Shown here one piece after another: positions 4,378-21,205 of a stretch of DNA of 34,775 nt (position 1 is its first letter; every line of letters starts with the position of its first letter). The notes under the pieces were generated by a model, which worked only from the letters and a program-made list of their open reading frames with translations, was not told the DNA's origin and made no database searches. The position numbers and the translations under genes were made by a program. Where the stretch lies: contig CAYIEJ010000001.1 of assembly GCA_964362455.1 (NCBI GenBank), positions 1 through 34,775 on the forward strand. The letters run 5' to 3'. The DNA comes from an uncultured Candidatus Saccharibacteria bacterium (lineage in GTDB: Bacteria; Patescibacteriota; Minisyncoccia; UBA6257; GWB1-50-10).

Positions 4378-5481
4378 TCACGGTTTTAGGAGTTTTAAAG
4401 CGGCAATTTCCTTGGCTGTTTCTCGTGAGTATTTATTTTCTTTACCGGCTTTTTCCAGAACTTTTTGCACGCTTGTTGAGATTTTTTCGTTTATTAATTT
4501 AAACATCTCTTTTTCGCCATAGCCACAATGCTCGGCGTAGGAAGAGATGACGCCGCCGGCATTCGCGACAATATCGGGGACAACCAATATTCCTCTATCC
4601 TCAAGTTGGCGTTCGATGTGTTCGCGCATCGGGATATTGGCCCCTTCGACGATTATTTTCGTTTTGATGTCATTGACGTTGTTTTCGTTAATTACATCCG
4701 GAAGGGCGGCTGGGATTAAAATATCTACGTCAAGTTCAAAAATTTTTTGGCCAATTAACTTTTGAGCATTCTTATAAGCCGTAACGCTCCCCCCAGATTT
4801 TTTAGCCGCCACTACTTCCTCATAATTTAAACCGTTGGAGTCGTATATTGCGCCACTGGAATCCGAAACTGAAACAATCTTTGCGTCCGCTTCTGATAAA
4901 AATTTAAATACGAATGTTCCGACATTGCCAAAACCCTCGATTGCGACCGCAGCGCTTTTTATGTTTAGGCCAAAAAATTTTGCGGCGATTTTCGCGGCTT
5001 CGGCTATACCGTAGCCAGTGCTTCCCAGTTCATGGGGAAGGCCGCCGAGGCTTTTGGGTTTTCCGGTGGCTGCTTTTTGATTTCCGGCGACGGCAACAAA
5101 CTGAGCCATTTCAATTTCGGTGGTATTTACATCTGGACCGGCTATATAATGTTTAATTAAAAAAGGTTTAAGTTGATAAGCAAACCATTGAATAATTTCT
5201 TGTTTTTCGGCTGGCGTGTGATTTTTTGGGTCAAAAGCGATGCCGGATTTGGCGCCGCCGAAAGGAATATCTGCCAATGCGTTTTTGTAAGTCATTGCTC
5301 TTGCGAGCCGCGCCACTTCGTTTTCCGTTACATTAGGCGTCATTCTTATCCCGCCTTTGCCCGGTCCGAGAGTAAGGTTGTCTATCACCAAATATGCCCA
5401 AGTGCCATATTTATGATTGAGAGTTTTAAAAATATATTCCGGACCCAGCGAATCGCCTTTAAGCAAGATGTCATTTTCCAT
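4378..5481 (-). CDS. Glu/Leu/Phe/Val-family amino-acid dehydrogenase (short GDH-like)
   Basis: 367 aa with the catalytic-lysine motif GPGKGGIRM, the AxxMTYKNA region and a Rossmann GFGNVG dinucleotide motif. Substrate cannot be decided from sequence alone. Confidence 0.85.
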   Translation of the reverse strand: MENDILLKGDSLGPEYIFKTLNHKYGTWAYLVIDNLTLGPGKGGIRMTPNVTENEVARLARAMTYKNALADIPFGGAKSGIAFDPKNHTPAEKQEIIQWFAYQLKPFLIKHYIAGPDVNTTEIEMAQFVAVAGNQKAATGKPKSLGGLPHELGSTGYGIAEAAKIAAKFFGLNIKSAAVAIEGFGNVGTFVFKFLSEADAKIVSVSDSSGAIYDSNGLNYEEVVAAKKSGGSVTAYKNAQKLIGQKIFELDVDILIPAALPDVINENNVNDIKTKIIVEGANIPMREHIERQLEDRGILVVPDIVANAGGVISSYAEHCGYGEKEMFKLINEKISTSVQKVLEKAGKENKYSRETAKEIAALKLLKP

Positions 5482-6355: not shown

Positions 6356-7429
6356 TTATAAAAGTTTTTCTATTCTTATTCCCAACAATCTAATTAATTT
6401 TTGGTTTGGGTTATCTCGTTTATCTAAAAACGGCAGTAAAAGACGCAATGCTTCGAATTGAAGAGTTTTTAAATCGCGAGCCGGTTCGTTTAAGGTGTGT
6501 GAACGGCTTTTGGGTTCAAAATCATGAAAGCGGACAGTTAAAACCACGCTTTTATAACCTTTAAAATTACTTGACTTAAAACGGGTGAAAATGTTTTGTG
6601 AAAGTTTATTAAGTCGCTCGGATAAAAAATTTAAATCTTTTGTATCCTTGGAGAAAGTCTCTTGTTCGCCGATTGATTTCACTTCATATTCTTCTGTTAT
6701 CGGCGAACTATCTATACCGCGGATTTTTGCGTATAATTCGGCTCCCCACTTTCCCATAATCTTTTTAAATTCTTCTTGGGAAAAATCTTTTAAATCTTTA
6801 ACGCACTTAACCCCTAATTTTTTAAAAATTTCTTCGGTTTTCGGGCCGATGCCTGGAATTTTTCTAATTGCTAAAGGTTCTAAAAACTTTTCCGTATCTT
6901 TTTCTTCAATAATGATAAGGCTGTCTGGTTTTTTGAAGTCTGCCGCGATTTTGGCAATGAGTTTGTTGGGACCGATGCCGATTGAACAGGTTAGTTGCTC
7001 TTGTTCTTTTATCTCGCTTTTTATTTTTTCGCAGATATTTCTTGCTTTTTGAAAATTTTCGATAAAGCTTAAATCAAGATAGACTTCATCAATGCTTGCT
7101 TGTTCTATGAGCGGCACATACCTTTTGATAATAGTGATGATGCTTTGCGAAACTTGACTATAACAAGAAAAATTTGGGCTGACAAAGATAACTGCTTCTT
7201 TGCTGGCTTTTCTTGCTTCTTCAGATAAACGCCAAGCTGTTGAAATCGGCATCGCCGAATGAATGCCATATTCCCGGGCCTTGTAATTAGCAGTTGAAAC
7301 AACGCCTCGGCCTTTGCCGTCTTGCGGATCGGCTCCGACAACAATCGGTTTGTTTTTTAACCGCGGTTTATCTCTTTCCTCAATCGCAGCAAAAAACGCA
7401 TCCATATCTAAAAGACCGATTATTCGCAT
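6356..7429 (-). CDS. dinB: DNA polymerase IV (Y-family translesion polymerase)
   Basis: 357 aa with N-terminal LDMDAFFAAIEERD, SIDEVYLD catalytic acidic residues and a GIGPKTEE helix-hairpin-helix. Confidence 0.92.
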   Translation of the reverse strand: MRIIGLLDMDAFFAAIEERDKPRLKNKPIVVGADPQDGKGRGVVSTANYKAREYGIHSAMPISTAWRLSEEARKASKEAVIFVSPNFSCYSQVSQSIITIIKRYVPLIEQASIDEVYLDLSFIENFQKARNICEKIKSEIKEQEQLTCSIGIGPNKLIAKIAADFKKPDSLIIIEEKDTEKFLEPLAIRKIPGIGPKTEEIFKKLGVKCVKDLKDFSQEEFKKIMGKWGAELYAKIRGIDSSPITEEYEVKSIGEQETFSKDTKDLNFLSERLNKLSQNIFTRFKSSNFKGYKSVVLTVRFHDFEPKSRSHTLNEPARDLKTLQFEALRLLLPFLDKRDNPNQKLIRLLGIRIEKLL

Positions 7430-10123: not shown

Positions 10124-11788
10124 CTAAAACGGAAGATTCATTATTGGTTTTTTTATTGGCGGTGGAGAATAATCAGTGACACTAATAGTAATAATTTCTG
10201 AATCAGAGCCGCCGCGGCCGTCTGTTGCGTTAAACGTAACGTTATACTGGCCAGAATCGCTATAGGTTGGCCGCCATCTGAAAATGCCTGTTTGCGCGTC
10301 AAATGAGAACTGGCTTGGCAGAACACTTACGGCATCAGTGGAATAAGTCAGTGTATCGCCGTTTCCATCAGTGGCGCTTAAATCAATCGTAAGCCATTGC
10401 GCTTCTTGCGTTGATTTATTTCCGATAGAAGCCATAACTGGCGCGATGTTTGTAGTAAGAGCGTTATAGGCATTGATACGGCCACCTTCAATTGCCGGGA
10501 AACCCGTGACTGGATCAGAAGTGTCAATCAATGCTTGTCTTATTTGACTTGCTGCAAGCACCGCGTTTGGTCTCGAAAGCATTAAACCGATAACGCCGGC
10601 AACAATTGGGGTGGAAAAAGAAGTACCGCTTCCACCGACGTAACTGTTATTTAAATAAGGCATAGAGATTCCATCTCCTGGTGCGGCAACATCAACCCAA
10701 GTTCCATAATTCGAGAAACTTGTTTTAGTGTCGGTCCAATCGGTAGCCGCAACCGCTATTACCTCATTATGGGCTGCTGGGTATACATAAGTTGAATTAT
10801 TATAATTACCAGCCGCAGCGATTAAAACGGCGCCGGCATTATATGCATCGGTTACGCCTTGTAGTAAGAGAGAATAATTGCTTGTAAAAGCCGCACTTAC
10901 TAAAATAACATCCGAGAAATTAGGGTTTTCTGGAATGCCCACCATTCCTGTGGGATTATTGACAGCAAATTCAAGTGCTGAGTAAACAGCACTTAGACTC
11001 ATGGCACCTTGACCGGTGGTACCACGCCAGCCGGCTTTAATCGGTAAAATCATACAGTTGGGACAAGTACCCGCTATTCCTAAACCATTGTTAGTTGCGG
11101 CACCAGCAATGCCGGCGACTCCGGTACCATGGCCGTAATCATCTTCTGGAGTAAAATCGTTATAAAGCGCGTCCCACCCCGGCAAAAGTTTTCCCACTAA
11201 ATCTTCGTGTGTCGATTCTACGCCAGTATCAATTATGGCGATTACTGTGGAAGAATTGCCGGTTTCAATATCCAAAGCTTCGGGTGCATCAATATCAGCA
11301 TCTGGTGTCCACCCCTCTGCTTGGCCGGTATTATGAAGACCCCACTGTGTTGTGAAATATGGATCCTCCGGCATCATTGCGAGAACGCCAATAAAATTTG
11401 GTTCAGCAATAAAGACAAACGGATTATTTTTTACTGAATCGGCAACAAGTTGTGGGTCGGTTTTTTCGTCAAACTTTAAAGTTAGAAATCTCTTACCGTG
11501 GGGCGAAATGCTTTTTTCAAGATTATTATTATGGAGTTTTTCAACAGAATCAATGGAAACCGGACTTGATGCTTTGATTGAAGATATTAATTCTTCGTCG
11601 CTTAAATTGCTTTCACGTGTTAAAACCAAAAGTTCGCCCGGCACAAATGGATTTTCATTTATTTGGATTTGAGGCGGCAAAATTTGGAGCGGCGCCGCTT
11701 GAATAGGAGTAGTAATTAAAACGATTAAAAGAATAGGAATTATTCCGAGAAAAACCGGGCTTTGTTTAATCTGTTTAAACCTGCCCAT
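10124..11788 (-). CDS. Secreted subtilisin-family (S8) serine protease with a C-terminal Ig/cadherin-like domain
   Basis: 554 aa with a signal peptide (...TTPIQA/AP). Asp-His-Ser triad contexts are IAIIDTGV, HGTGVAGIAG and GTSFSTPIVAG. C-terminal module: DGNGDTLTYS...NATDGRGGSD. Confidence 0.88.
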   Translation of the reverse strand: MGRFKQIKQSPVFLGIIPILLIVLITTPIQAAPLQILPPQIQINENPFVPGELLVLTRESNLSDEELISSIKASSPVSIDSVEKLHNNNLEKSISPHGKRFLTLKFDEKTDPQLVADSVKNNPFVFIAEPNFIGVLAMMPEDPYFTTQWGLHNTGQAEGWTPDADIDAPEALDIETGNSSTVIAIIDTGVESTHEDLVGKLLPGWDALYNDFTPEDDYGHGTGVAGIAGAATNNGLGIAGTCPNCMILPIKAGWRGTTGQGAMSLSAVYSALEFAVNNPTGMVGIPENPNFSDVILVSAAFTSNYSLLLQGVTDAYNAGAVLIAAAGNYNNSTYVYPAAHNEVIAVAATDWTDTKTSFSNYGTWVDVAAPGDGISMPYLNNSYVGGSGTSFSTPIVAGVIGLMLSRPNAVLAASQIRQALIDTSDPVTGFPAIEGGRINAYNALTTNIAPVMASIGNKSTQEAQWLTIDLSATDGNGDTLTYSTDAVSVLPSQFSFDAQTGIFRWRPTYSDSGQYNVTFNATDGRGGSDSEIITISVTDYSPPPIKKPIMNLPF

Positions 11789-11861
11789 CTTAATATTCCA
11801 TCATACTCCTTTTCGACTCTTTGTCAAGGGCCAGGGTGTGCACAATTCAGTTAGGCAAACC

Positions 11862-11893
11862 AAGCAATTTTATCGCGGTTTTCTCCATGTTTT
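11862..11893. repeat. Copy A of a 32-nt imperfect direct repeat (partner at 13724..13755)
   Basis: aagcaattttatcgcggttttctccatgtttt versus aagtaattttatcgcggttttcgctatgtttt gives 29/32 identity. Both copies also have taggcaa upstream (11852-11858 and 13696-13702). Confidence 0.8.
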
Positions 11894-11931
11894 CTGTCGC
11901 ACTGAAGTTCAACTTCTACAAGTTCTATTCT

Positions 11932-12453
11932 TTAGAACTTATTGTTTTGGGAGTTTTTTCTCTTTAATCCTTTTTCTAATTTATTATTTATTTTCTGTGA
12001 GTACTTCTCGAGCGGATTAAGACCAACCTTTTTTCTTCGGCTGTTAATCATCTTTTTATCTTTAATCGGAAACAACTCGAGTTTCTGCCCAACTCGTCTG
12101 AACTGTGTTCCGTATAATTGCCTGCCTTCTCGTTTGATAAGAATCCTATCAGTCAGAAAGGCCTCATCTTTTTTACTGAAGCAGCACCTTTTGAGACAAG
12201 CTTTTTGAAGTTCAATGTCAAAATCTTGATGCTGAATTAATAACCAAAAATTGTGCAACCCCCCCTTTCCTATAAGTTTCAAATTAGGATAGCCGTATAG
12301 TTCTATTATTTTTTTTATTCGATAATTATGAACCCAATCAATAGCATAAATTAAAAAATTTATTGGGCCCCGCCCTCGTTTTGCCTGCCCCCGCAAATCT
12401 TGATCAACTTTATACATTTCGTTGATCTGTTTTGCTAAAGTTTTATTTATCAT
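11932..12453 (-). CDS. Hypothetical protein (173 aa, basic C-terminus)
   Basis: Clean ORF with no motif I can assign. It starts immediately after the terminator of the ATP-grasp gene. Confidence 0.55.
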   Translation of the reverse strand: MINKTLAKQINEMYKVDQDLRGQAKRGRGPINFLIYAIDWVHNYRIKKIIELYGYPNLKLIGKGGLHNFWLLIQHQDFDIELQKACLKRCCFSKKDEAFLTDRILIKREGRQLYGTQFRRVGQKLELFPIKDKKMINSRRKKVGLNPLEKYSQKINNKLEKGLKRKNSQNNKF

Positions 12454-12454
12454 G

Positions 12455-12488
12455 AAATATAAAAGGGAATAGAAGAATCTCTATTCCC
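12455..12488 (-). terminator. Rho-independent terminator closing the graspetide mini-operon
   Basis: Perfect 9-bp stem GGGAATAGA/TCTATTCCC (12465-12473 / 12480-12488) with a 6-nt loop, followed on the minus strand by UUUUAUAUUU. Confidence 0.75.
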
Positions 12489-12497
12489 ATTCTAATA

Positions 12498-13460
12498 TCA
12501 AATGAGTAGATCTGCAATTGCTTTAGCGATTTCCATGTTGGTCCGTAGTTGTACAAAATACCATTGACCGTTTGGATTAACCTCTAAAAATATATATTCA
12601 CCTGAAGGGGTCACAATCATATCAATGCACCCATATTTAAGCTCCATCTTTTTCATAAAGGAGAAAATTTTACTTACAACCTCTTCGGGCAATACCGTCG
12701 GTTCCATTTTTACATCAAAGTCATTAAGCTTTGGTTTTCTCCGCCAATCGACCGCCGTTTCTTCGTCTTGCTGCGAGAGAATTTTCACGGGGAAAATTCT
12801 ATCACCAACTACAGTAATTCTGAGCTCATAACCTTTAGGAATGTTTGCCTGAAATATCGAGGGCGAAAATCTAACAGAATCTATATTATCCATCTGTTCC
12901 GGTTTTACCCGATTTGTATAAACTACGTGGTCAAGAATCGGACTAGCGGCAAATAACTTAACTATAATATCTCGCGAGTGTGTCTCAAAAAAATCCCGTA
13001 CTTGATCGGGACTAGACGTAATAAGCGTATTAGGGACCGTAAATCCGCATTCCACGGCAACACAAAGTTGATAAATTTTATTTTCAGCCGCAAACGCCGT
13101 CCAAGAATCATTTATCCATTTTTTATGGGAGAGTAGGGTCCAGAGTGCGCGCCCCATTTCATCAAACTGACGATGGATAAACTGTCGATGTTCTGCTGGT
13201 TCATATTGTAGTAGTTCTCTAGGTAAATGCGGATGCATATACCACACAGTAGAGAAGATATCTGTATCGTATTTGACGTTATCTATCACTACGAAATATC
13301 GCGGCTTGCCGTCAATAACTTCAAAAGTGAGGTAATCGTCTTCCAAGCATTTATCTTGTTTAAAAAGTATAGCATTTTCGCCGCGCCTGCCGAGTTCTTC
13401 TAAAACCAATTTGAATGCCGCTACCTCATAAGAACCAGAATTTCCGATTGCAAGTATCAT
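12498..13460 (-). CDS. ATP-grasp peptide ligase of the graspetide/microviridin type (MdnC/MvdD-like omega-ester macrocyclase)
   Basis: About 320 aa. Blocks resemble MdnC as I recall it: FSPSIFQANIPKGYELRITVVGDRIF, AVDWRRK, YGCIDMIVTPSGEYIFLEVNPNGQW. The ATG at 13460 has AAAGGAG 6 nt upstream, so I prefer it to the track start at 13466. Confidence 0.85.
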   Translation of the reverse strand: MILAIGNSGSYEVAAFKLVLEELGRRGENAILFKQDKCLEDDYLTFEVIDGKPRYFVVIDNVKYDTDIFSTVWYMHPHLPRELLQYEPAEHRQFIHRQFDEMGRALWTLLSHKKWINDSWTAFAAENKIYQLCVAVECGFTVPNTLITSSPDQVRDFFETHSRDIIVKLFAASPILDHVVYTNRVKPEQMDNIDSVRFSPSIFQANIPKGYELRITVVGDRIFPVKILSQQDEETAVDWRRKPKLNDFDVKMEPTVLPEEVVSKIFSFMKKMELKYGCIDMIVTPSGEYIFLEVNPNGQWYFVQLRTNMEIAKAIADLLI

Positions 13461-13501
13461 CGTCATCTCCTTTCAGTGTGCTTTGCCGAATCCCAATTAT
13501 T

Positions 13502-13530
13502 AAGGGGGAGAAAATGAGTTTCTCCCCCTT
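13502..13530 (-). promoter_or_regulatory. Strong intercistronic hairpin between the precursor and ATP-grasp genes
   Basis: Perfect 12-bp stem AAGGGGGAGAAA/TTTCTCCCCCTT with a 5-nt loop. There is no clear U-tract after it on the minus strand. Confidence 0.7.
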
Positions 13531-13541
13531 AGACCTCACTT

Positions 13542-13643
13542 TCAGGCGCTGTCGTAACAATCGATGTCATCGTAGGTGCCTGTAGTCGTGGGAGAAAACG
13601 CACCTTCCCGCTTTTCCAAGAAATGTAGGATAAACGGCACCAT
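13542..13643 (-). CDS. Graspetide precursor peptide (33 aa), absent from the ORF track
   Basis: Hand translation gives MVPFILHFLEKREGAFSPTTTGTYDDIDCYDSA. A purine-rich SD (AAGGAAGGGGGTGA) lies about 10 nt upstream. The leader has a PFxxxFL motif like the microviridin PFFARFL recognition motif. The core is rich in Thr/Ser donors and Asp acceptors. It lies directly upstream of the ATP-grasp gene on the same strand. Confidence 0.8.
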   Translation of the reverse strand: MVPFILHFLEKREGAFSPTTTGTYDDIDCYDSA

Positions 13644-13723
13644 TTGTGTTACTCACCCCCTTCCTTATTGGGTTTTCGAGGTTCTGCGATAAAGGTAGGC
13701 AATCCTTTGCTATTTGTCAAATT

Positions 13724-13755
13724 AAGTAATTTTATCGCGGTTTTCGCTATGTTTT
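13724..13755. repeat. Copy B of the 32-nt imperfect direct repeat (partner at 11862..11893)
   Basis: See copy A. It lies 81-112 nt upstream of the precursor ATG on the minus strand. Copy A lies 74-105 nt upstream of the S8 protease ATG. Confidence 0.8.
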
Positions 13756-13784
13756 TTAGTTTTTATTATCTACAATTGTGTTAT

Positions 13785-14594
13785 ATGAAGCGGTTTCGTT
13801 GTATTATCCCAAAATTAGAAACCCGGAATTCGCGTGAGATTTTTATGCTCTTCTCTGCTATGAATTTAATGGGTTACAACGAAGAAAATAATCCTCGCGG
13901 CATGTCAGATGAAAGAAAACGTGTGAGAAATGTTCTGCGTGCATATGACTGGCGGAATAAATATCCGCGCCTCGCTAGTGTTATCAAAAAACATCACCCA
14001 TGGTATCTCGTGCGATGGATACTTTTAAAAGATAAACGCCTTTCTGATTTAGAAAGGTTTGCGCAAGAAAAAGATGTCCAAAAGCAGTGGAATGAATTAA
14101 AGATACGTTTCAAACAAAAGACAAAAAAAATTGCCACCATATTTGAAAGAGAGACGAATCGACTTATAACTTTTATTGGCACGCCGCCGAAGCAACTCAA
14201 GAAAATTATACTTATCGTCAATCCCCTTGATGCTTATTGGCGAGGATACGCTTTTAACATTAAGGGTACCGGTTATATCATTGTCGGTCCTGAAGCCGAG
14301 AAAAATGGTGGCCGACTTATCAGACATGAACTTTTGCATCTTTTTACGCCCACAATTCAAATTTCTAAAAACATAATTGTCGATCAACGCCATAGACGTT
14401 TAATTGCTCAAGGATATGGCAGTAATAGTGCCATCAAAAATGAATATGTGGTTCGTAGTTTAAATCTCCTTTACCAAAGAGGGATATTAAAAAAGAATAT
14501 CTCGCAAGCCATTAAAAATGAAGAAAATGACTTCCCTCACATTAGGAAAGTTATGCAGATTATTATGGTGAAATTAAAGCGGGGCGTCCGGTAA
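13785..14594 (+). CDS. Hypothetical HExxH protein (putative zinc metallopeptidase), HELLH
   Basis: The ORF contains GGRLIRHELLHLF. I prefer the ATG at 13785 (MKRFRC...). The track start at 13644 is a TTG that would overlap the divergent precursor gene and its upstream region. Confidence 0.6.
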   Translation: MKRFRCIIPKLETRNSREIFMLFSAMNLMGYNEENNPRGMSDERKRVRNVLRAYDWRNKYPRLASVIKKHHPWYLVRWILLKDKRLSDLERFAQEKDVQKQWNELKIRFKQKTKKIATIFERETNRLITFIGTPPKQLKKIILIVNPLDAYWRGYAFNIKGTGYIIVGPEAEKNGGRLIRHELLHLFTPTIQISKNIIVDQRHRRLIAQGYGSNSAIKNEYVVRSLNLLYQRGILKKNISQAIKNEENDFPHIRKVMQIIMVKLKRGVR

Positions 14595-14629
14595 TTCATA
14601 AAAATATTTTCAGGGCAGATTTTAATGAA

Positions 14630-14833
14630 TTGGATAGCGAATTTTTCAGTAAAGTAGTCAATCCTTTACTTACCATTTCTGTTATCAATGATGTTGCGAG
14701 GAGTTGTGGTAGATTACGAGAGATTGAAATTTTAAAGGAAATTGAACGATTCTGGACTGAAGGCAAAAATATTTTTATTGTGTATGGTCAAACACACGCT
14801 GTGATTCAAGAGCCGGTCTTAAAAACATTGTAA
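14630..14833 (+). CDS. Doubtful small ORF or gene fragment (67 aa, TTG start only)
   Basis: The frame is open from 14546 with no ATG and no recognisable RBS. It may be a remnant of a larger gene. Confidence 0.25.
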   Translation: MDSEFFSKVVNPLLTISVINDVARSCGRLREIEILKEIERFWTEGKNIFIVYGQTHAVIQEPVLKTL

Positions 14834-14889
14834 AAGATTATATAAGATTTCAGATTATTTGAGTGTATGGAACCTTTTAATAATTCAAA

Positions 14890-15369
14890 GTGAAAAAGAG
14901 TTATAAAAAAATAGTAAATACTTTTAGAAAGGTAGTTTGTACGCTCAATCGAATAGGAGTTGAACCAGTGATTTATGGATCGTTGGGCTTGCATCTTCTG
15001 ACTGGTAAAAATGTAAAAATAAATGATATCGATTTTCTTCTTCAAGATTCTGATTTCGACCGGAAATGGGATGATATAAAAACAATTCTAGAAGCAGATT
15101 ACTGCAAACTAGATCCGAAACATAAACAAGAATTTAAGTGCCAGGATTTGTTTGTATCTTTTTTGAAGATTAAAGACGTTTCGCAACTTACCAAAATTAA
15201 TTTTTCAAGATTGAAAAAGTATAGATATGGCGGAGGAATATATCGTAATTTAAACCCGAAACAATATTTAGATTTTTATGAAAAAAGATCTAAAAAAAGG
15301 AATAATTCAAAAATAAAAAGGAAAAAGGATTTAGAGAAAATTGAATTAATTAAAAATTATTTGAGCTAA
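14890..15369 (+). CDS. Nucleotidyltransferase-fold protein (Lnu/aminoglycoside-NTase-like minimal NTase)
   Basis: 159 aa with a GTG start. The segment VEPVIYGSLGLHLLTGKNVKINDIDFLL matches the GS...DxD pattern of pol-beta-superfamily NTases. Size is similar to lincosamide nucleotidyltransferases. Confidence 0.5.
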   Translation: MKKSYKKIVNTFRKVVCTLNRIGVEPVIYGSLGLHLLTGKNVKINDIDFLLQDSDFDRKWDDIKTILEADYCKLDPKHKQEFKCQDLFVSFLKIKDVSQLTKINFSRLKKYRYGGGIYRNLNPKQYLDFYEKRSKKRNNSKIKRKKDLEKIELIKNYLS

Positions 15370-15412
15370 TAATCAGCAAATTATCAAATTTTGCTATATA
15401 ATTAAACGATCC

Positions 15413-16057
15413 ATGCTTTATAAGCTAAATCTGAACGAGATCAGAGATAAGTCTATTGAAAGAACCTTTCGTGAATCAATGAAAGAGTTCAGTAAATTTT
15501 ATGGCATCAACTGGATAAAAAACACGCCAAAAATTATCTTTCTTCAAAATAGAAAATCAATTAATTTATTACGCGGTCAGAAAACCGAACCGTGGCTAGT
15601 TGGCTGGGCTAATGACAAAACGCGAATAATTTTTATTCTGGACCGAGATAATTTTGAAAAAGAAAGTTGCCATAAATATTCTAAGGAACGCTATTCCGTT
15701 TTAATTAAACACGAGCTTAGTCATTTATTTTATTATATACTTTCCGGCGCTATGTACACTCCAAAATGGTTGGTTGAGGGTGTGGCAATTTTTACCGCTG
15801 GTCAAAATAAATTTAAGAAAAAGCCTGATAAATTCAAAAGTTTCTTGGCATTTGATGACAAGGCCACCCCTGGAGTATATGCGGAATCAGGTTTCGTTAT
15901 TGAAACGCTAGTTAAAAAATTCGGTAAAAATAAATTAATAAAGTTAATTAAATCGTTGCGAGACGTATCTAACAAAGAGCAATTTAATAAAATTTTCCAA
16001 AAAATTTATGGGTTTAAAATGGGTTATGAAGTCATGAATAAATATTATAAAAGTTAA
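15413..16057 (+). CDS. Peptidase MA-like gluzincin (HELSH ... EG), putative zinc metallopeptidase
   Basis: 214 aa. VLIKHELSHLFYYILSGAMYTPKWLVEGVAIF gives HExxH plus a downstream Glu in an EGxA context, typical of Peptidase_MA_2-like domains. Confidence 0.65.
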   Translation: MLYKLNLNEIRDKSIERTFRESMKEFSKFYGINWIKNTPKIIFLQNRKSINLLRGQKTEPWLVGWANDKTRIIFILDRDNFEKESCHKYSKERYSVLIKHELSHLFYYILSGAMYTPKWLVEGVAIFTAGQNKFKKKPDKFKSFLAFDDKATPGVYAESGFVIETLVKKFGKNKLIKLIKSLRDVSNKEQFNKIFQKIYGFKMGYEVMNKYYKS

Positions 16058-16076
16058 TTTCAAACCAGATTAATAT

Positions 16077-16547
16077 TTATTCATTTTTTAGAATCTTTAG
16101 AATCGTATTAACTACAAACTCCTTTTGTAAATGTTCGATATTATACTTTTTGATAAATGGTTCAAGCATTATATGGATCATTTCGTGCATAATAGTATTT
16201 ATTGCATCGAGGTGAGTGTTAAGGTTAATAGTAACAGTATTATTACTCGCGTTATAAAAACCGAGCGGTCCATAATTTGAAATCTCAACAGTAAATTTGG
16301 TTTCTCCCGGTTCGTGAAAAAAGACAGATAGTCGTTCTGTAAACCCCCGTTCTCTCTTGGCCCACTCTATTTCAATCCATTTTTTGTAACTTTCATATTT
16401 TTTCGTATCGTATTCCTCTTCCACGGTTTGTTGAGGCCAGGTGAATTTTATTTTGTTGGTTTTTAAAAACTCCATGTTCCTTCGAACCATATCAAAAATA
16501 TCTTTTTCTCGTTTAATGGAACAAATGATAAATTTTACGTTTGGCAT
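16077..16547 (-). CDS. SprT-like / minimal zincin HExxH protein (HEMIH)
   Basis: 156 aa. NNTVTINLNTHLDAINTIMHEMIHIMLEP resembles the SprT/WLM-type strand, helix and HExxH arrangement. Confidence 0.55.
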   Translation of the reverse strand: MPNVKFIICSIKREKDIFDMVRRNMEFLKTNKIKFTWPQQTVEEEYDTKKYESYKKWIEIEWAKRERGFTERLSVFFHEPGETKFTVEISNYGPLGFYNASNNTVTINLNTHLDAINTIMHEMIHIMLEPFIKKYNIEHLQKEFVVNTILKILKNE

Positions 16548-16581
16548 ATTAATAATTATTCTAAATTAATAGAAAAATATA

Positions 16582-16633
16582 AAGGCGGAGAGAAGTGATT
16601 CTCCCCGCCTTAGCGGACGAAACGATCCGCTAC
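16582..16633 (-). terminator. Tandem hairpins: orphaned terminator downstream of the dnaJ 3' remnant
   Basis: Minus strand shows UAGCGGA-(8)-UCCGCUA (7 bp), then AAGGCGGGGAGAA-(4)-UUCUCUCCGCCUU (13 bp including one G-U), followed by UAUAUUUUU. The second stem is fully paired only on the minus-strand transcript. Confidence 0.7.
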
Positions 16634-16638
16634 GCATT

Positions 16639-16680
16639 TTACAGTTCTTTATCTAAATCTTCCAAGAGTTTTTTGGCTTT
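16639..16680 (-). pseudogene. dnaJ: Remnant of a dnaJ 3' end (last 13 codons plus stop)
   Basis: 39/42 nt identical to 20084..20125. It encodes [13 protein letters not shown], the same as the live dnaJ. An in-frame TAA sits immediately upstream, so it is not part of a functional gene. Confidence 0.8.
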
Positions 16681-16776
16681 GTCTTACGAAGTCCGACTTC
16701 ATAAAATCAGTCCTTCCGCTTTTTATCCGATCGTTTTCTTTCTATCATTGGCGAGTTAATGAATTATTTCCAAAAA

Positions 16777-16805
16777 TTCACAATTTTATTTTAGCCTGCT
16801 ATAAT
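16777..16805 (+). promoter_or_regulatory. Sigma70-like promoter TTCACA-17-TATAAT giving a leaderless mRNA
   Basis: The -10 TATAAT at 16800-16805 ends 6 nt before the ATG at 16812. There is no SD, and no alternative downstream Met lies near the N-terminus. Confidence 0.55.
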
Positions 16806-16811
16806 AGTTAT

Positions 16812-17702
16812 ATGCATTTATCAATAAAAATTTCTCGCCTATCTAATTTTTTATTTTTTATTCAAAAAACAGATGGATATAATTTAATTAACTCTGATTT
16901 ACGAAAATGTTTATCAGATGAAAAATTCAGTCTGTCTTTTTATGGAAAAAGCAAAAATAAAATTTGGAGACAAATTGAAAAAACAATCGGAAAAGAAAAC
17001 GCAAAACAAGTAAAAAAATCTATCGTTTCGCTGGAGCCAGTCTTTACTTTGTATTGGCGTAAAACATCCGAGCATTTACTTTCATGGAAGCGGTATTTTC
17101 AAAATAATCAGTTATTATTTCAACATATTATTCTTGAGGTAAAGAAATTAAGCGGAATAAAACATTCGGCAGCTTCTAACATTCCGATTTATTTTGTTTC
17201 TGATCCCGTGAGTAATGATAAAGAAATTAACGCGTGGTTTTCTTGGACGCCAAAAGAAAGTTTTATAATCGTTGAAATTCCGTTTAGCCTTAAGACGTCT
17301 AATCACTTTTTCCCGCTGGCTGTTTTAGCGCATGAATTTTTCCATTTAATGTTGAGAAAAAATAAAAATCTACTTTTAAAAATTATTAAAATTACCAAAG
17401 AAAACGACAAATTATTTACAGAGCTAGCAGAAGGTATGCCAAATAGAATATTCCTGGAAGAATTATTAATCAGTTCATTTATTCCGGAGGGTTATTTAAG
17501 CGAGAAGTATTTCAACGCGAAAATTATTTCTCATATTTTAAAACCAAAAAGTTTATTAACGTGGCGAAAGTTTGTCGCGTTTAAATTAAGACGGACGACA
17601 AAAGCATATATTGATAATCTTCAGTGTATTGATGAAAAATACCTTAAAGATTTAATAAAAGTTATCAAAGAAAATACAAAAAATAGCCCCTCCAGAGTTT
17701 AG
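16812..17702 (+). CDS. Hypothetical HExxH protein (putative zinc metallopeptidase), HEFFH
   Basis: 296 aa containing FPLAVLAHEFFHLMLRKN with a downstream ELAEG. Very AT-rich. Confidence 0.6.
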   Translation: MHLSIKISRLSNFLFFIQKTDGYNLINSDLRKCLSDEKFSLSFYGKSKNKIWRQIEKTIGKENAKQVKKSIVSLEPVFTLYWRKTSEHLLSWKRYFQNNQLLFQHIILEVKKLSGIKHSAASNIPIYFVSDPVSNDKEINAWFSWTPKESFIIVEIPFSLKTSNHFFPLAVLAHEFFHLMLRKNKNLLLKIIKITKENDKLFTELAEGMPNRIFLEELLISSFIPEGYLSEKYFNAKIISHILKPKSLLTWRKFVAFKLRRTTKAYIDNLQCIDEKYLKDLIKVIKENTKNSPSRV

Positions 17703-17719
17703 TCTGAAAGGGGCTTTTG
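17685..17719. terminator. Bidirectional terminator shared by the HEFFH gene and the WDK peptide gene
   Basis: AGCCCCT...AGGGGCT (17685-17691 / 17709-17715) with inner CAGA/TCTG pairing. T-runs follow on both strands. It overlaps the stop codon of 16812..17702. Confidence 0.65.
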
Positions 17720-17734
17720 GTGGGCTCGTAGAAA

Positions 17735-17902
17735 TTACTTTCTGTTTGCCCAGTGGCCCTTATCCCAAGGACCTTTGTCCCAAGCCTTGTCCCAGAGTTT
17801 CTCTTTGCCTGAAGTCTGCATAGCAGCTTCTTTTTTTGCCTGAAGCAAAACCCGTGGAACGGGATTAGGATTTGCCTTTATGGCAGGAGTGTTATTCAGC
17901 AT
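17735..17902 (-). CDS. RiPP precursor candidate with a C-terminal (WDK)x3-WAN repeat core (55 aa), absent from the ORF track
   Basis: Hand translation gives MLNNTPAIKANPNPVPRVLLQAKKEAAMQTSGKEKLWDKAWDKGPWDKGHWANRK. GGAGG lies 8 nt upstream of the ATG. It sits 42 nt downstream of the rSAM/SPASM gene on the same strand and is followed by a terminator. The three WDK units use different codons (GAC/GAT, AAG/AAA), so the repeat is conserved at the peptide level. Confidence 0.75.
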   Translation of the reverse strand: MLNNTPAIKANPNPVPRVLLQAKKEAAMQTSGKEKLWDKAWDKGPWDKGHWANRK

Positions 17903-17944
17903 GGTTTTCACCTCCTTTCGCTGAGTGGTTTGTTTTACTTTTGG

Positions 17945-19039
17945 CTACACAAGACCATACGATCTTATTTTAGCCGAAACATGCTCAAAGTATCTCCTGA
18001 GACTTCTACAGATCTCGTCTATTGGCTCAACTGCATCGACTTGCTCATAGCAGTCCTTTGCGCAACCTCCTTTGCAGATTAAATACCAATTACATGTTTT
18101 ACAACGTTCTTTCCTCTTTCTCAGTAGCTCTCGAAAACTTTGCAAACATGAATTGGATCTAACCACCGCTGATTCATCCAGTACGTTGCCAAAGCGTAGA
18201 GCGTCTGTCTTTGGAAAAGAATCGCAACCGTAAATTGAGCCGTCGGAATAGACAGTGACGAATTGATCGCATTGTCCCATGTAGATGCATTCACGTTTAT
18301 TCCCGCCGAGAATCAAATTAACAACACTTTGAATGTCTCGGATTTCAACTTCCGGATCATCTAGCTCTAGCCAGCGATCGAAGATGGCGATCATGAAATT
18401 GGTGTATTGTGCTGGTGAAATTACCAGTGACGATACATTGTTGCAATGACCGATATTCTTCACTCTGGCAAACTTTAACTTTTTTATGTTCTCCGTAATA
18501 AAAAAGTTGAAAACTTCTTCTGGGAATCTATGATTGACAGTGCTTACACCGCAGATAACCCCGTTGAAGATTTCGGCCTGGCGCAATAAATCAATGCCTT
18601 TCATAACCTCATCGTGCGACCCTCTGCTGGTAGAGTAGTGGCGAACTTGATCGTGTAATTCCTTCGGTCCATCAAGACTCACGCCGACGAGGAAATCGTT
18701 TTCGGAGAAGAAGCGTGCCCATTCTGAAGTAATGAGAGTGGCATTTGTTTGAAGAAAATTGGCTATCTTCTTTCCTTGTTGTTTCCATTGGCATTGAAGT
18801 TCCACTACCTCGCGGTAAAATTCTAGTCCGGCAAGTAGCGGCTCTCCTCCATGCCAAATGAACTCAACATCGTCCTGATCGCGACAGAAGAAATCAATCA
18901 TCGCCTTCAATACTTCGGGGCGCATACGATTTCTGACGATATATTCTTTGAGCCCGGAAGTATAACAATACGAGCAGGACAAATTGCACGTCCCGTTGAC
19001 TGGCTTGACAATTGGAGTCGAGACTGACTGGTAAAACAT
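17945..19039 (-). CDS. Radical SAM enzyme with a C-terminal SPASM domain (peptide-modifying maturase candidate)
   Basis: CNLSCSYCY (CxxxCxxC), GGEPLLAG, and auxiliary-cluster cysteines CIYMGQC...GC and CKTCNWYLICKGGCAKDC (the CxxCxxxxxCxxxC SPASM signature). The ATG at 19039 has AAGGAGG 8 nt upstream, so I prefer it to the GTG at 19048. Confidence 0.88.
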   Translation of the reverse strand: MFYQSVSTPIVKPVNGTCNLSCSYCYTSGLKEYIVRNRMRPEVLKAMIDFFCRDQDDVEFIWHGGEPLLAGLEFYREVVELQCQWKQQGKKIANFLQTNATLITSEWARFFSENDFLVGVSLDGPKELHDQVRHYSTSRGSHDEVMKGIDLLRQAEIFNGVICGVSTVNHRFPEEVFNFFITENIKKLKFARVKNIGHCNNVSSLVISPAQYTNFMIAIFDRWLELDDPEVEIRDIQSVVNLILGGNKRECIYMGQCDQFVTVYSDGSIYGCDSFPKTDALRFGNVLDESAVVRSNSCLQSFRELLRKRKERCKTCNWYLICKGGCAKDCYEQVDAVEPIDEICRSLRRYFEHVSAKIRSYGLV

Positions 19040-19112
19040 TGCAATCACCTCCTTATCTGAACGTTGTAAAAGAACGCTCTAGAAAATCACTATGATTTTT
19101 TTTACTGTACTT

Positions 19113-19141
19113 AATATAATTCACTATCAATTATTTGTCAA
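19113..19141 (-). promoter_or_regulatory. Sigma70-like promoter TTGACA-17-TATATT for the rSAM/peptide operon
   Basis: Minus strand reads TTGACA (19141-19136), a 17-nt spacer, then TATATT (19118-19113). It lies 14 nt from the left end of the IS. Confidence 0.5.
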
Positions 19142-19155
19142 GATTGTATCATGGT

Positions 19156-20062
19156 TCAATAGCTTGTAATCACCTGATAGCGTATGTACATGACATATTC
19201 AAACAATCCCAATCTCCCTCGTGTGAGACGCGAGGCAGTAAACTTCGTCCTTCGAGGATATAGCACAAGAGAGGCCGCAAGACATTTCGGATACAGCCAA
19301 GGAGCAATCGTTAAGTGGTTGAAACGAGCTCCGGCGAATCGAAGAACGCTCATTCAAACTCTTTCCTCAAAACCTCATCATCATCCGAATGAAATTGATA
19401 AGGAGATCGTGTATCGGATTCTCGAATTGAGACATGAGCGCAATGAATGCGCTGAAATCATCCATCACAAATTGAAGAAAGAAAAAATCATTGTCTCCCT
19501 TTCCTCTGTAAAAAGAGCTTTGAAGCGTCATGGGCTCATCTATCCCTCCAAATGGAAGAAATGGCACAAGTATCCGCCAAAACCAATACCGGAGAGACCA
19601 GGCGTACTCATACAAATTGATTCAATGCGAGAAGGCGTGCCCCAAGAATGCCTTCACGCGTATGCTTTGATTGATGTTTGCTCAAGATGGGGGTATGTCG
19701 AGGCCACAGAGAAAATTTCAACTCATTTGAATGCCCACTTTCTTCAAAAAGCTCAGAAGAAGTCTCCTTTCACATTTCAAACCATTCAATCAGATCATGG
19801 CCAAGAATTCTCAAAATGGTTCACGAAGAAATGTTTGAATTGCGGTTTTGCTCATCGCCATTCAAGAGTGAGGACACCAACAGATAATGCTCATGTGGAA
19901 AGATTCATTCAAACTTTTCAGAAACAATGTCTGAATCGTGTGCCTCGTTCAATCAATGCTTGGAGGAAGGAAATTCCTGATTTCCTTAAATGGTACAATA
20001 CTGAAAGGCCGCATATGGCATTGGGGATGAAAACGCCAGCCGAAGTGATTACAAGCTATTGA
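19156..20062 (+). mobile_element. IS481-like insertion sequence (907 bp, single rve-type DDE transposase)
   Basis: Perfect 18-bp terminal inverted repeats: TCAATAGCTTGTAATCAC at 19156-19173 and its reverse complement at 20045-20062. A single ORF fills the element and its stop codon lies inside the right IR. Confidence 0.8.
19184..20062 (+). CDS. DDE transposase (HTH plus integrase-core rve domain)
   Basis: 292 aa. DDE contexts are VLIQIDSM, IQSDHGQEF and DNAHVERF. Also carries the characteristic YNTERPHMALGMKTPAEV tail. Confidence 0.88.
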   Translation: MYMTYSNNPNLPRVRREAVNFVLRGYSTREAARHFGYSQGAIVKWLKRAPANRRTLIQTLSSKPHHHPNEIDKEIVYRILELRHERNECAEIIHHKLKKEKIIVSLSSVKRALKRHGLIYPSKWKKWHKYPPKPIPERPGVLIQIDSMREGVPQECLHAYALIDVCSRWGYVEATEKISTHLNAHFLQKAQKKSPFTFQTIQSDHGQEFSKWFTKKCLNCGFAHRHSRVRTPTDNAHVERFIQTFQKQCLNRVPRSINAWRKEIPDFLKWYNTERPHMALGMKTPAEVITSY

Positions 20063-20083
20063 TTAGAAAGCAAACGCTTGGAA

Positions 20084-21205
20084 TTAAAGCTCTTTATCCA
20101 AATCTTCCAAGAGTTTTTTGGCTTTAGCGGATAGATGTTTGGGGATTTTGAGGTTAAGAGTGATGTAAAGATCACCGCGGCCGAGTTCGCCTACCAAGGC
20201 GCCGAAGCGCGGCATTCCTCTGCCCGGCACTTTTAATTTTTCTCTAAAATCAAAACCGGCGGGAATTATGAAATAAAATTTTTCACCGCTTATATCTTCT
20301 TGCGCAATTTTTTTGCCCAAAAGCGCATCCGTGATACGAATATCTTTCATTACGAAGAGGTCGGTTTTCTTTCTTTGAAAAATGAAATGTGGTTTAATTT
20401 TAATTAAAATATAAAGATCGCCGGAAGCGCCGCCGCGCTCGCCGGCTTCGCCGGAGTTTTTTATTTTTATCACCTGGCCGTCCTCGATGCCCGGCGCGAT
20501 TTCAATTAATACTTCACGTTCATCCATTATTCTGCCGTTTCCCCGGCAAGCATCGCATAATTTATTCGGCACTTCGCCGCGACCATAGCATGCCGGGCAG
20601 TTTTTAATTTGAGAAAAGTTACCGAAGAAAGTTTTTTTCTGTTCCCGAATTTCGCCTTTGCCTTGGCAGGTAGCACATGATTTTGTGCCTTTGGTTTTAT
20701 CATAACCTAAGCCGTTGCAAGCGGTGCAGACCGCATAGGTTTTTAATTTAATTTTTCTCTTGACGCCCCGGAAAGCTTCTTCAAGGGTTATTTCGTGGAC
20801 CATTTCAATATCCGAGCCGTGAGTGTAGGTTTGGCGTCGTCGCCCGCCGCCGAATTGTTCAAAAATGCTTTCGAATAAGTCGCCGAAATCAAAACCTTCG
20901 CCGCCGAATCCGGCATCCCAGCGAATCCCATCCTGACCGAAGCCAAAGTCCCAGCCCGGTGTTCCTCCCCCGCCATAGGCGGGTCCGCCTCCGGCGGAAA
21001 AAACTTGCCCGAAACGATCATACTGAGTCCTTTTTTCTTTATTGGATAAAATCTGATAAGCCTCGTTTATTTCTTTAAACTTTTTTTCGTCGCCGCCGGT
21101 CTTGTCGGGGTGGTATTGATGCGCTAACCGTCGATAGGCTTTTTTTATTTCCTCTTCAGAAGCGTTGCGATTCACGCCTAAAATTTTATAGTAGTCCCTT
21201 GTCAT
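20084..21205 (-). CDS. dnaJ: Molecular chaperone DnaJ
   Basis: J domain with HPD (YHPDK), a G/F-rich linker and four CxxCxGxG zinc-finger repeats ([32 protein letters not shown]). Confidence 0.96.

Follow-up and report, generated by a model that had tools for sequence, protein, structure and literature searches.

Insertion with long target duplication was reportedly described by Nobusato et al. in 2000. In the published cases, which come mostly from naturally competent bacteria, an insert of less than 20 kb that carries no mobility gene lies between direct repeats of over 30 bp, and these have no other copy in the genome; the length of the repeats varies, with 46 bp in H. influenzae (Furuta et al. 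2010, PMC2853133). During natural transformation, homology-facilitated illegitimate recombination incorporates foreign DNA by way of one homologous anchor and an illegitimate joint, as outlined in PMC2884548 (de Vries & Wackernagel 2002; Prudhomme et al. 2002). Graspetide loci of CPR bacteria, from ATP-grasp branches 1 and 2, encode an ATP-grasp ligase together with a short precursor whose leader carries a P-hydrophobic motif and whose core is rich in Thr and Asp; an uncharacterised partner, "cluster 23," is ever present, and SPASM radical-SAM and zincin genes are frequent neighbors (Makarova et al. 2022, PMC8939145).

The window analyzed here, the whole 34,775-nt stretch of contig CAYIEJ010000001.1, belongs to an assembly of 372,795 bases that is 72% complete. 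It contains a pair of short direct repeats around a graspetide module, and this pair is probably a junction duplication that arose by integrase-free insertion ("insertion with long target duplication"). The likeness to the published class lies in the small size of the unit, in direct repeats of more than 30 bp without further copies in the genome as assembled, and in the lack of a transposase or integrase. The cargo differs, being a RiPP (graspetide) here and a restriction-modification system in the published cases, and the copies are 84% identical here and 94 to 100% identical there; the assignment is made from two copies, whereas the class is defined by a genome with one uninterrupted copy of the target. 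Homology-facilitated illegitimate recombination would explain short, displaced anchor copies that differ as two strains do, and RecA is present in the assembly; in contrast, the anchor here would be non-coding, and the 72%-complete assembly yielded no ComEC homologue. Repeats also border gene cassettes at integron attC sites and integrase att sites, but the present repeats lack the nearby integrase, imperfect palindrome, conservation of sequence between cassettes, and tRNA target of such sites. The make-up of the island is that of the CPR graspetide loci described by Makarova et al. (PMC8939145), who report neither flanking repeats nor an S8 protease partner.

Sequence and uniqueness of the repeat pair

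The two copies of the repeat lie as follows.

11851..11893, 43 nt ungapped with a 32-nt core at 11862-11893: repeat copy A, between the DUF6624 stop codon and the protease promoter (nhmmer E = 5.5e-11)
13713..13755, 43 nt with the core at 13724-13755: repeat copy B, in the divergent intergenic region between the precursor gene (minus strand) and a DUF4932-like HExxH gene (plus strand) (nhmmer E = 9.7e-9)

The 32-nt direct repeat reported in the initial annotation is real: the cores, aagcaattttatcgcggttttctccatgtttt in copy A and aagtaattttatcgcggttttcgctatgtttt in copy B, agree at 29 of 32 positions, far above chance. Both copies contain CGCGATAAAATT, as had been noted, and the 22-mer AAGYAATTTTATCGCGGTTTTC has two sites in the window, one per copy, where none is expected from 100 shuffles. 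In a repeat search of the window, ungapped extension widened the match to 36 of 43 positions (84%), and local alignment of the two intergenic regions scored 51 against a shuffle maximum of 29 to 32. The repeat exceeds 30 bp on both sides of the insert whether measured by gapped-scoring local alignment (38 nt) or ungapped (43 nt). The distances originally given are correct. Counted upstream on the minus strand, copy A occupies positions 74-105 nt before the start codon of the protease (ATG, 11788), and copy B positions 81-112 nt before that of the precursor (ATG, 13643). The intergenic regions that hold the copies are almost equal in length (143 and 141 nt), with the genes on the same strand.

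The earlier description extended the likeness to a shared taggcaa (11852-11858 and 13696-13702) and an 18-nt insertion; both are present in the sequence, but they do not represent flank likeness above chance. The flanks outside the 43-nt block are no closer to each other than shuffled sequence (p = 0.15 upstream, 0.68 downstream), and an ungapped alignment that sets TTGACA of copy B opposite TTGCCT of copy A is at least as good as the gapped one with the 18-nt insertion. The run of 18 perfect bases is unremarkable given 7 mismatches in 43 positions (P = 0.12). A stretch beyond copy B that might be left over from the protease promoter (TTGACAAATAGC--AAAGGA versus TTGACAAAGAGTCGAAAAGGA) gave p = 0.03 to 0.2, depending on the scoring scheme, and was not established.

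The copies had been called non-coding on the grounds that their frames differ. The argument is invalid, and the conclusion stands. On the plus strand, both copies occupy the same relative frame of the open frames 11821-11967 and 13644-14594. The repeat is nonetheless non-coding because the homologue of the plus-strand DUF4932-like gene in another genome (G026; 45% identical) starts at the equivalent of ATG 13785 and because no minus-strand ORF of at least 30 aa spans either copy. Peptides translated from the repeat in all frames had no match elsewhere in the genome, and Rfam had no match for the repeat. The RNA folds of the copies were no better than those of shuffles, with none common to both copies, and no dyad symmetry or inverted repeat was found inside the element.

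The 372,795 bases contain the exact 17-mer core at two places only. An nhmmer profile built from both copies recovers only these two in the assembly (next best E = 0.22), and the sole match with two mismatches falls within an extended coding frame of contig C10. Searches of the 72%-complete assembly by exact, fuzzy, and profile methods thus yielded no site beyond the two copies, neither the further motif sites that had been proposed as a check for a regulon nor the many unrelated loci of a generic dispersed repeat, which had been named as the outcome that would speak against the pair. Over 185,579 species genomes, the 17-mer gave at least 119 matches, all at chance level (at most 30 of 43 positions when compared with the full repeat), the pattern being too short. 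The 22-mer had no match over metagenome contigs, and the junction pattern ATTGTGCACACCC-N6/7-TTGACAA had two chance matches in metagenomes, in unrelated coding DNA, and none in genomes. A comparison of the repeat DNA with 400 genomes of the same order returned short chance-level matches only, the best of them at a coding 3' end in genome G050, and the repeat profile found nothing in 31 loci from relatives.

The graspetide module and its island

The segment between the 43-nt copies (11894-13712; 1,819 nt) contains three genes and no mobility gene, with ATP-grasp and DUF6624 as the only Pfam families. Its features, and that of the gene beyond copy B, are as follows.

13542..13643, minus strand: graspetide precursor of 33 aa, MVPFILHFLEKREGAFSPTTTGTYDDIDCYDSA, from the ORF list
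12498..13466, minus strand: ATP-grasp ligase with RimK-like and MvdD pre-ATP-grasp domains (Pfam PF08443 and PF21068, the latter matched at 24.0 bits, under the Pfam cut-off of 27 bits)
12465..12488, minus strand: terminator-like hairpin with a trailing T-run, between the ATP-grasp gene and the DUF6624 gene
11932..12453, minus strand: DUF6624 protein of 173 aa, the constant partner of the ATP-grasp family (Pfam PF20329, E = 2.6e-18)
13785..14594, plus strand: DUF4932-like HExxH protein (weak Pfam match), divergent from the precursor

The precursor reads MVPFILHF...TTTGTYDDIDCYD. In gene content, the module is that of a predicted CPR graspetide cluster, namely, an ATP-grasp ligase with an MvdD-type pre-domain, a short precursor in which a P-hydrophobic leader precedes a Thr...Asp core, and an adjoining DUF6624 gene. 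We take "cluster 23" of Makarova et al. to be, putatively, Pfam DUF6624. There were 288 homologues of the ATP-grasp ligase (E <= 1e-30); those with names are from Patescibacteria, and the closest is just 64% identical.

The same genes travel together elsewhere. The DUF6624 gene adjoins the ATP-grasp gene in L131, L144, L145, L146, L162, L163, and L164. The full unit of precursor, ATP-grasp, and DUF6624 genes recurs in L131 (from genome G053), L146, L162, and L163, where small ORFs homologous to the precursor lie upstream of related ATP-grasp genes and no copy of the repeat was found upstream of the precursor; the ATP-grasp and DUF6624 genes are also together in L144/L145 and L164. The G053 cassette has a hairpin at the same place as the one between the ATP-grasp and DUF6624 genes here. 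The seven related modules each lie amid different, unrelated housekeeping genes, and neither the repeat nor an S8 protease was found within 5 kb of them. In base composition, the module is not distinct from the rest of the genome.

Both copies of the repeat lie in an accessory island.

11789..20083: accessory island with the S8 protease gene on one side and dnaJ on the other, holding both repeat copies (compared with L148, L149, and L150)
11834..11847, minus strand: AATTGTGCACACCC, the leftmost piece of the island, common to L147 and the last homologous stretch before copy A

The relatives L148, L149, and L150 share the order GrpE-DnaK-x-DnaJ-protease-(fn3)-L10-L12, with dnaJ 18 or 55 nt from the protease ATG and with flanking genes alike on both sides. 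Because dnaJ directly abuts the protease gene in these three relatives, window positions 11789-20083 represent an inserted island. The locus L147, whose protease is 73% identical, carries a variant of the island that has no graspetide module, DUF4932-like gene, or repeat. Its alignment covers window positions 11847-10301 and 15355-14905, so that the window is longer by 3,057 bases; the homology breaks off at 11847, and copy A starts 3 nt past this point. An insertion here or a deletion there may each account for the contrast with L147. A single uninterrupted copy of the repeat at an empty site was not found in these loci, as L148, L149, and L150 lack the island and L147 lacks the module and the repeat, and no closer relative was found in 5.8 billion protein clusters or in pattern scans of metagenomes and genomes. 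The closest homologue of the DUF4932-like gene (L151; 75% DNA identity) is truncated beside what by eye is an FtsA-like frame and is uninformative on the empty site, and the G026 homologue lies in a different gene order.

Proposed insertion and parallel brackets at other peptide cassettes

In the preferred reading, recombination would have brought a portable three-gene module of about 1.8 kb into the variable island that separates dnaJ from the S8 protease gene. A piece of local non-coding sequence, about 40 nt long, would have been left on both sides of the module, with one copy ending up before the module and the other before the protease promoter. The mechanism was presumably integrase-free, and the copies, at 84% identity, would differ because donor and recipient had diverged and not because the duplication is old. 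The repeat itself would have no dedicated regulatory function, and any effect, such as that of A-tract-rich DNA upstream of the -35 region of the cassette, would be a by-product. The second of two readings offered in the initial annotation, a duplicated junction or att-like scar around the segment from the precursor through the ATP-grasp gene to the 173-aa ORF, is supported in its first half: the 1.8 kb between the copies coincides exactly with a module that is found again as a unit in other Patescibacteria, in a different context each time, copy A starts 3 nt beyond the end of the L147 homology, and similar two-copy brackets occur at other peptide cassettes.

One of these brackets lies in the same island.

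16639..16680: displaced copy of the dnaJ 3' end, 42 nt, 93% identical to the real dnaJ end at 20084-20125
20084..21205: dnaJ

A radical-SAM cassette lies together with an IS between the two dnaJ tails. The pair in L162, about 30 nt long and placed around a homologous graspetide module, is the duplicated end of a ComF-like gene, the real tail reading ...IVVARA* and the relic ...AMVARA*. A genome of the same family (G020; 100% complete) contains a 92-nt pair with 84% identity, present in two copies in that genome, around a precursor, a TPR gene, and an ATP-grasp gene. The brackets in these cases are 30 to 92 nt long and 84 to 93% identical, and no recombinase gene was found inside them. They resemble the present pair in being two-copy, genome-unique repeats placed around a peptide cassette in a recombinase-free setting; unlike the present repeat, which has not been traced to a source, they can be traced to the last codons of a gene (dnaJ and the ComF-like gene of L162) or to a terminator (G020). 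No bracketing repeat was found at 9 of the 13 other cassette loci examined, and the flanking repeat of L163 is a dispersed element with at least three copies in 11 kb. The two-copy bracket signature is recurrent, not universal.

Proposed shared regulation and other readings

The following features bear on possible shared regulation.

10124..11788, minus strand: secreted S8 (subtilisin-family) protease with C-terminal Ig-like domains (Pfam PF00082, E = 5.7e-40)
11800..11827, minus strand: the protease's own predicted promoter, TTGACA-16-TATGAT (11/12), with the -10 ending 11 nt before the ATG, of the leaderless type
11817..11828, minus strand: CTTGACAAAGAG, relic of the last dnaJ codons (L-D-K-E), now the -35 region of the protease promoter
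13692..13720, minus strand: best sigma-70-like match before the precursor, TTGACA-17-TACCTT (9/12), a consensus match only

The other reading of the initial annotation was a shared promoter or operator. A shared cis-regulatory element (a regulator site, an UP-like element, or a promoter) that couples expression of the S8 protease and the graspetide is unlikely, though it ranks first among the alternatives; the graspetide might act as an inhibitor of the protease or undergo maturation by it, and the element, which may well stem from a duplication, would now be maintained by selection. Graspetides such as the microviridins and marinostatin do inhibit serine proteases (PMC8939145), and both copies lie on the coding-sense side, 74 to 112 nt upstream of the start codons, in intergenic regions nearly matched in length. 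Three A-tracts, read from the sequence as AAAAC-N6-AAAAC-N6-AAAAT, are phased at exactly 11 nt. The core lies 7 nt upstream of the best -35 in copy B, where the predicted -35 hexamer of the precursor overlaps the 3' end of the copy, and 38 nt upstream in copy A; this 31-nt difference corresponds to about three helical turns and also means that the copies are placed differently relative to the best promoter of each gene.

Several observations weigh against such an element. The assembly contains no third copy of the repeat and therefore no regulon, and the pattern of mismatches, with the probability of 0.12 given above, fits neutral drift. Dyad symmetry, a shared RNA fold, and an Rfam match are all lacking. 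The TAAAAT proposed as a possible -10 within the repeat belongs to promoters that score 8/12 in both copies, which is background level: among the best scores for 173 upstream regions in the genome, 8/12 is the most frequent. The protease promoter block is conserved upstream of the orthologues (60 to 73% identical) in L147, L148, L149, and L150, where the repeat is absent. In L148, dnaJ closes with the bases that correspond to the -35 region (…CTTGACAAAGAACTATAA), and the protease ATG follows 18 nt later. None of these four loci has a graspetide next door, the seven related cassettes have no S8 protease nearby, and the adjacency of protease and graspetide was seen in this genome alone among the loci examined. 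On the preferred reading, the adjacency is a matter of chance, produced recently by insertion into a variable island, and does not represent a conserved pairing; the idea of a protease and its cognate inhibitor under one switch is therefore without comparative support.

Somewhat less probable again is a broader version, in which the 40-nt element would be a working cis-regulatory site that was copied with the insertion, so that a single control would govern a secreted subtilisin-type protease and a graspetide in a CPR bacterium, and in which peptide cassettes of these ultra-small bacteria may more generally spread by a dedicated integrase-free mechanism that duplicates 30 to 90 nt of target. 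A further proposal keeps the insertion scar and changes the origin of the 40 nt: as with the dnaJ and ComF-like tails, they would derive from the last codons, since decayed, of a gene formerly next to the insertion point. In one minus-strand frame, both copies translate to ...KTAIKLL... with two synonymous differences, and the repeat is 88% identical over 32 nt to the 3' end of a coding frame in G050, by eye the end of nusB. This origin is improbable: the G050 match (E = 6e-4 per genome) is at chance level with 400 genomes searched, no gene in the assembly ends in a similar peptide, and the differences between the copies are mostly non-synonymous in the ...KTAIKLL... frame. The poorest candidate, and a very improbable one, is the att-like part of the earlier proposal, which would make the copies attL/attR-like or cassette-end sites of a dedicated recombinase that moves the module: direct repeats of about 40 nt do stand at both ends of a discrete module, and the island has an rve-type (IS3-like) transposase gene (19184-20062), the nearest one at 5.3 kb, and contig C19 a tyrosine recombinase gene, but there is no recombinase gene inside or beside the bracket, no tRNA gene near it, and no attC-kind inverted-repeat structure, what was duplicated in L162 and in the dnaJ case of this window is clearly host gene sequence, and homologous modules elsewhere have unrelated flanking repeats or none and therefore no conserved site.

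The pair is thus most likely an ordinary gene-transfer scar and not a demonstrated genetic switch. With insertion as the preferred reading, graspetide and radical-SAM peptide cassettes would join the cargo that enters Patescibacteria genomes by a recombinase-free route and leaves duplicated targets of 30 to 90 nt, with four instances now at hand. For annotation, short two-copy repeats of this kind would serve to mark the borders of modules in Patescibacteria genomes.

The repeat pair and its genetic surroundings

The 32-nt direct repeat reported in the initial annotation is real: copy A (aagcaattttatcgcggttttctccatgtttt, 11862-11893) and copy B (aagtaattttatcgcggttttcgctatgtttt, 13724-13755) are identical at 29 of 32 positions in the window sequence, and when the complete intergenic regions (143 and 141 nt) are aligned locally the score is 51, compared with a maximum of 29 to 32 for shuffled sequence. 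The distances to the two start codons, 74-105 nt for the protease and 81-112 nt for the graspetide precursor, are likewise correct. A repeat search of the window gave an ungapped similarity of 43 nt at 84% identity (11851-11893 and 13713-13755), and the 22-mer core pattern occurs at 2 sites in the window, with 0 expected from 100 shuffles. The similarity of the sequences on either side of the 43-nt block does not exceed that of shuffled sequence (p = 0.15 and 0.68), so the additional shared taggcaa and the 18-nt insertion that had been described represent one of two equally good alignments rather than an established feature. With 7 mismatches spread over 43 positions, a perfect run of 18 bases is not unusual (P = 0.12).

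Features around the two copies, in minus-strand order from high to low coordinates after the diverging gene
start 13785, plus strand: DUF4932-like HExxH gene, diverging from copy B
13713-13755: copy B of the repeat
13720-13692, minus strand: best promoter-like match upstream of the precursor, TTGACA-17-TACCTT, its -35 overlapping the end of copy B
13643-13542, minus strand: graspetide precursor ORF, 33 aa
13466-12498, minus strand: ATP-grasp ligase (Pfam RimK and MvdD pre-domain)
12488-12465, minus strand: strong hairpin with T-run, between the ATP-grasp and DUF6624 genes
12453-11932, minus strand: DUF6624 protein (Pfam)
11851-11893: copy A of the repeat, between the DUF6624 gene and the protease promoter
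after copy A and before the protease promoter, minus strand: block AATTGTGCACACCC
11827-11800, minus strand: near-consensus putative protease promoter, TTGACA-16-TATGAT (sequence match)
11788-10124, minus strand: secreted S8 protease (Pfam)

A perfect GC-rich inverted repeat without a T-run, GGGGGAGAAA...TTTCTCCCCC, lies at 13504-13528, in the spacer that separates the precursor stop codon from the start of the ATP-grasp gene.

Relatives of the island and of the graspetide module

The closest full-length protease orthologues are found in loci L148 and L149 (62% identical) and L150 (60%), which share the gene order GrpE-DnaK-x-DnaJ-protease-(fn3)-L10-L12 and have only 18 or 55 nt between the dnaJ stop codon and the protease ATG. 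The same genes flank window positions 11789-20083, which are therefore an insertion relative to these three loci. A fourth locus, L147, encodes a protease 73% identical to that of the window and has its own version of the island, with a radical-SAM gene, HExxH genes, and a nucleotidyltransferase gene diverging from the protease gene; the graspetide module, the DUF4932-like gene, and the repeat are all absent from it. L147 aligns to window positions 11847-10301 and 15355-14905, leaving 3,057 extra bases in the window (11848-14904). Copy A starts 3 nt past the alignment breakpoint, which places it at a recombination junction. L147 is not an ideal empty site for the single-copy comparison proposed in the initial annotation: it lacks the module, but it has zero copies of the repeat where one would be expected. 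The nearest genomes in the collections searched reach 64-73% protein identity.

In L147 (842-2211), a 58-aa ORF that follows the radical-SAM gene and overlaps its end reads ...CQAISICGGGCPA..., like a SPASM cysteine motif, and is probably the C terminus of the radical-SAM enzyme, split off by a frameshift or a sequencing error, and not a precursor peptide. Homologs of the HExxH genes at window positions 13785-17702 (DUF4932-like, Peptidase_MA_2-like, and the HEFFH protein) and of a 67-aa ORF (14630-14833) are clustered in another genome (L143, G026:C1:224164-227931) in a different order and orientation, and these genes form a separate conserved accessory set.

The ATP-grasp protein has 288 homologs at E <= 1e-30, those named being Patescibacteria, and the nearest is only 64% identical. 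A DUF6624 gene comes immediately after the ATP-grasp gene at seven related loci (L131/G053, L144/L145, L146, L162, L163, and L164), each in other housekeeping surroundings (EF-P, S20, pilM, a restriction-modification system, secA/murB), and a clearly homologous precursor is encoded in four of them (L131, L146, L162, and L163; for example, MTAFILSFLVKRTGVIGSWTSSGTYQDIDCFDAS). All seven lack a match to the window repeat, and no Peptidase_S8 gene lies within 5 kb of any of them. By this distribution, the segment between copies A and B is a portable module. It corresponds to the candidate-phyla-radiation graspetide loci with a leader starting P-hydrophobic, a Thr...Asp core, and the constant partner "cluster 23," in which SPASM radical-SAM and zincin genes are frequent neighbors (Makarova et al. 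2022, PMC8939145). In the near-identical loci L144 (5580-6000) and L145 (100-505), the region upstream of the ATP-grasp gene yielded no precursor-like ORF, and the precursor may have been lost there; L145 also carries a 40-aa HTH_38 (IS30-type) fragment just upstream. A run of N in L131 (4297-4394, G053:C7) lies between two identical copies of ~125 nt (terminator plus TTGACA), a pair that was rejected as a scaffold gap with overlapping ends, an assembly artifact.

Promoters, copy number, and possible regulation

A shared regulatory element for the protease and the graspetide is an unlikely reading of the repeat, though compatible with an origin by duplication. Each copy lies upstream of a gene on the same strand, the A-tracts of the repeat recur with an 11-nt phase, the copies differ by 31 nt, near three helical turns, in how far they lie from the best -35, and known serine-protease inhibitors occur among graspetides (PMC8939145). 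However, the promoter match within the repeat is at background level (8/12); no dyad symmetry, RNA fold, or Rfam match was found for it; it is not conserved in relatives at either the protease or the graspetide gene; and the two genes are adjacent in this genome only.

The proposed search for a regulon yielded nothing beyond the two copies in the assembly containing the window (372,795 bases, 33 contigs, 72% complete), which represents a small Patescibacteria genome, judging by its size and its relatives. The 17-mer core occurs exactly twice by exact search, the sole two-mismatch match in a fuzzy search is on another contig, within a long coding frame, and a profile built from copies A and B matched them at E = 5.5e-11 and 9.7e-9, with the next best match at 0.22. 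The two copies thus form a local pair and do not belong to a dispersed repeat family or a regulon.

The -35 of the protease promoter lies 23-34 nt from copy A, which is upstream, and a TTGACA-16/17-TATRMT promoter ending 7-11 nt before the protease ATG is also present in L147, L148, L149, and L150. The S8 protease therefore seems to have its own conserved, leaderless-type putative promoter and no need of the repeat. In L148, where dnaJ ends 18 nt before the protease ATG, the -35 falls within the last dnaJ codons (CTTGACAAAGAA); CTTGACAAAGAG is retained at the same place in the window (11817-11828), in the -35 region, and is another remnant of the dnaJ 3' end, the third. Promoters this close to the start codon are common in the genome: among its 29 upstream regions scoring at least 10/12, ten, including that of the protease, have a near-consensus sigma-70 promoter whose -10 ends 6-14 nt before the start codon. 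In this lineage, mRNAs with no leader or almost none may be common.

Bracketing repeats and the origin of the pair

The second-strongest direct repeat in the island (42 nt, 93% identical) pairs the real dnaJ end (20084-20125) with a displaced copy (16639-16680) and brackets the radical-SAM cassette and an IS. In L162 (GCA_021814545.1, JAKAID010000003.1), a repeat of ~30 nt (2621-2650 and 4452-4479) brackets the homologous graspetide module and derives from a ComF-like phosphoribosyltransferase gene, one copy being the genuine 3' end (...IVVARA*) and the other a displaced remnant of it (...AMVARA*). A genome of the same family, G020 (100% complete), contains a 92-nt repeat with 84% identity and a terminator hairpin, present in only two copies (G020:C2:33599-33701 and 35780-35873, equal to L134 4600-4702 and about 6781-6874), that encloses the genes for an 89-aa precursor with a PFLTRFA leader, a TPR protein, and an ATP-grasp ligase; past this cassette, at the contig end, is a transposase fragment. 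No bracketing repeat was found in nine other loci examined, and the two-copy bracket signature is recurrent, not universal. The ~100-nt repeat flanking the module in L163, on a 438-kb Patescibacteria contig, proved to be a dispersed intergenic element, of which 11 kb hold at least three copies measuring 60-100 nt (2498-2557, 4520-4620, and 7144-7245). Every copy has a promoter-like site just downstream, two flank the graspetide module, and the element, with its 10-bp hairpin (AACACTTCAA...TTGAAGTGTT), looks like a dispersed terminator/promoter-region repeat.

The repeat in the window is most likely an ordinary gene-transfer scar at the borders of the inserted graspetide module. Its pattern would match "insertion with long target duplication," in which genome-unique direct repeats of >30 bp flank inserts of <20 kb without a mobility gene, and which is known chiefly from naturally competent bacteria (Furuta et al. 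2010, PMC2853133). RecA is present in the 72%-complete assembly, and no ComEC homolog was found in it. In a closely related account, incoming DNA from a related strain would have been joined by homology-facilitated illegitimate recombination, which combines one homologous anchor with one illegitimate joint (PMC2884548); this would also explain copies that were just 84-93% alike from the outset.
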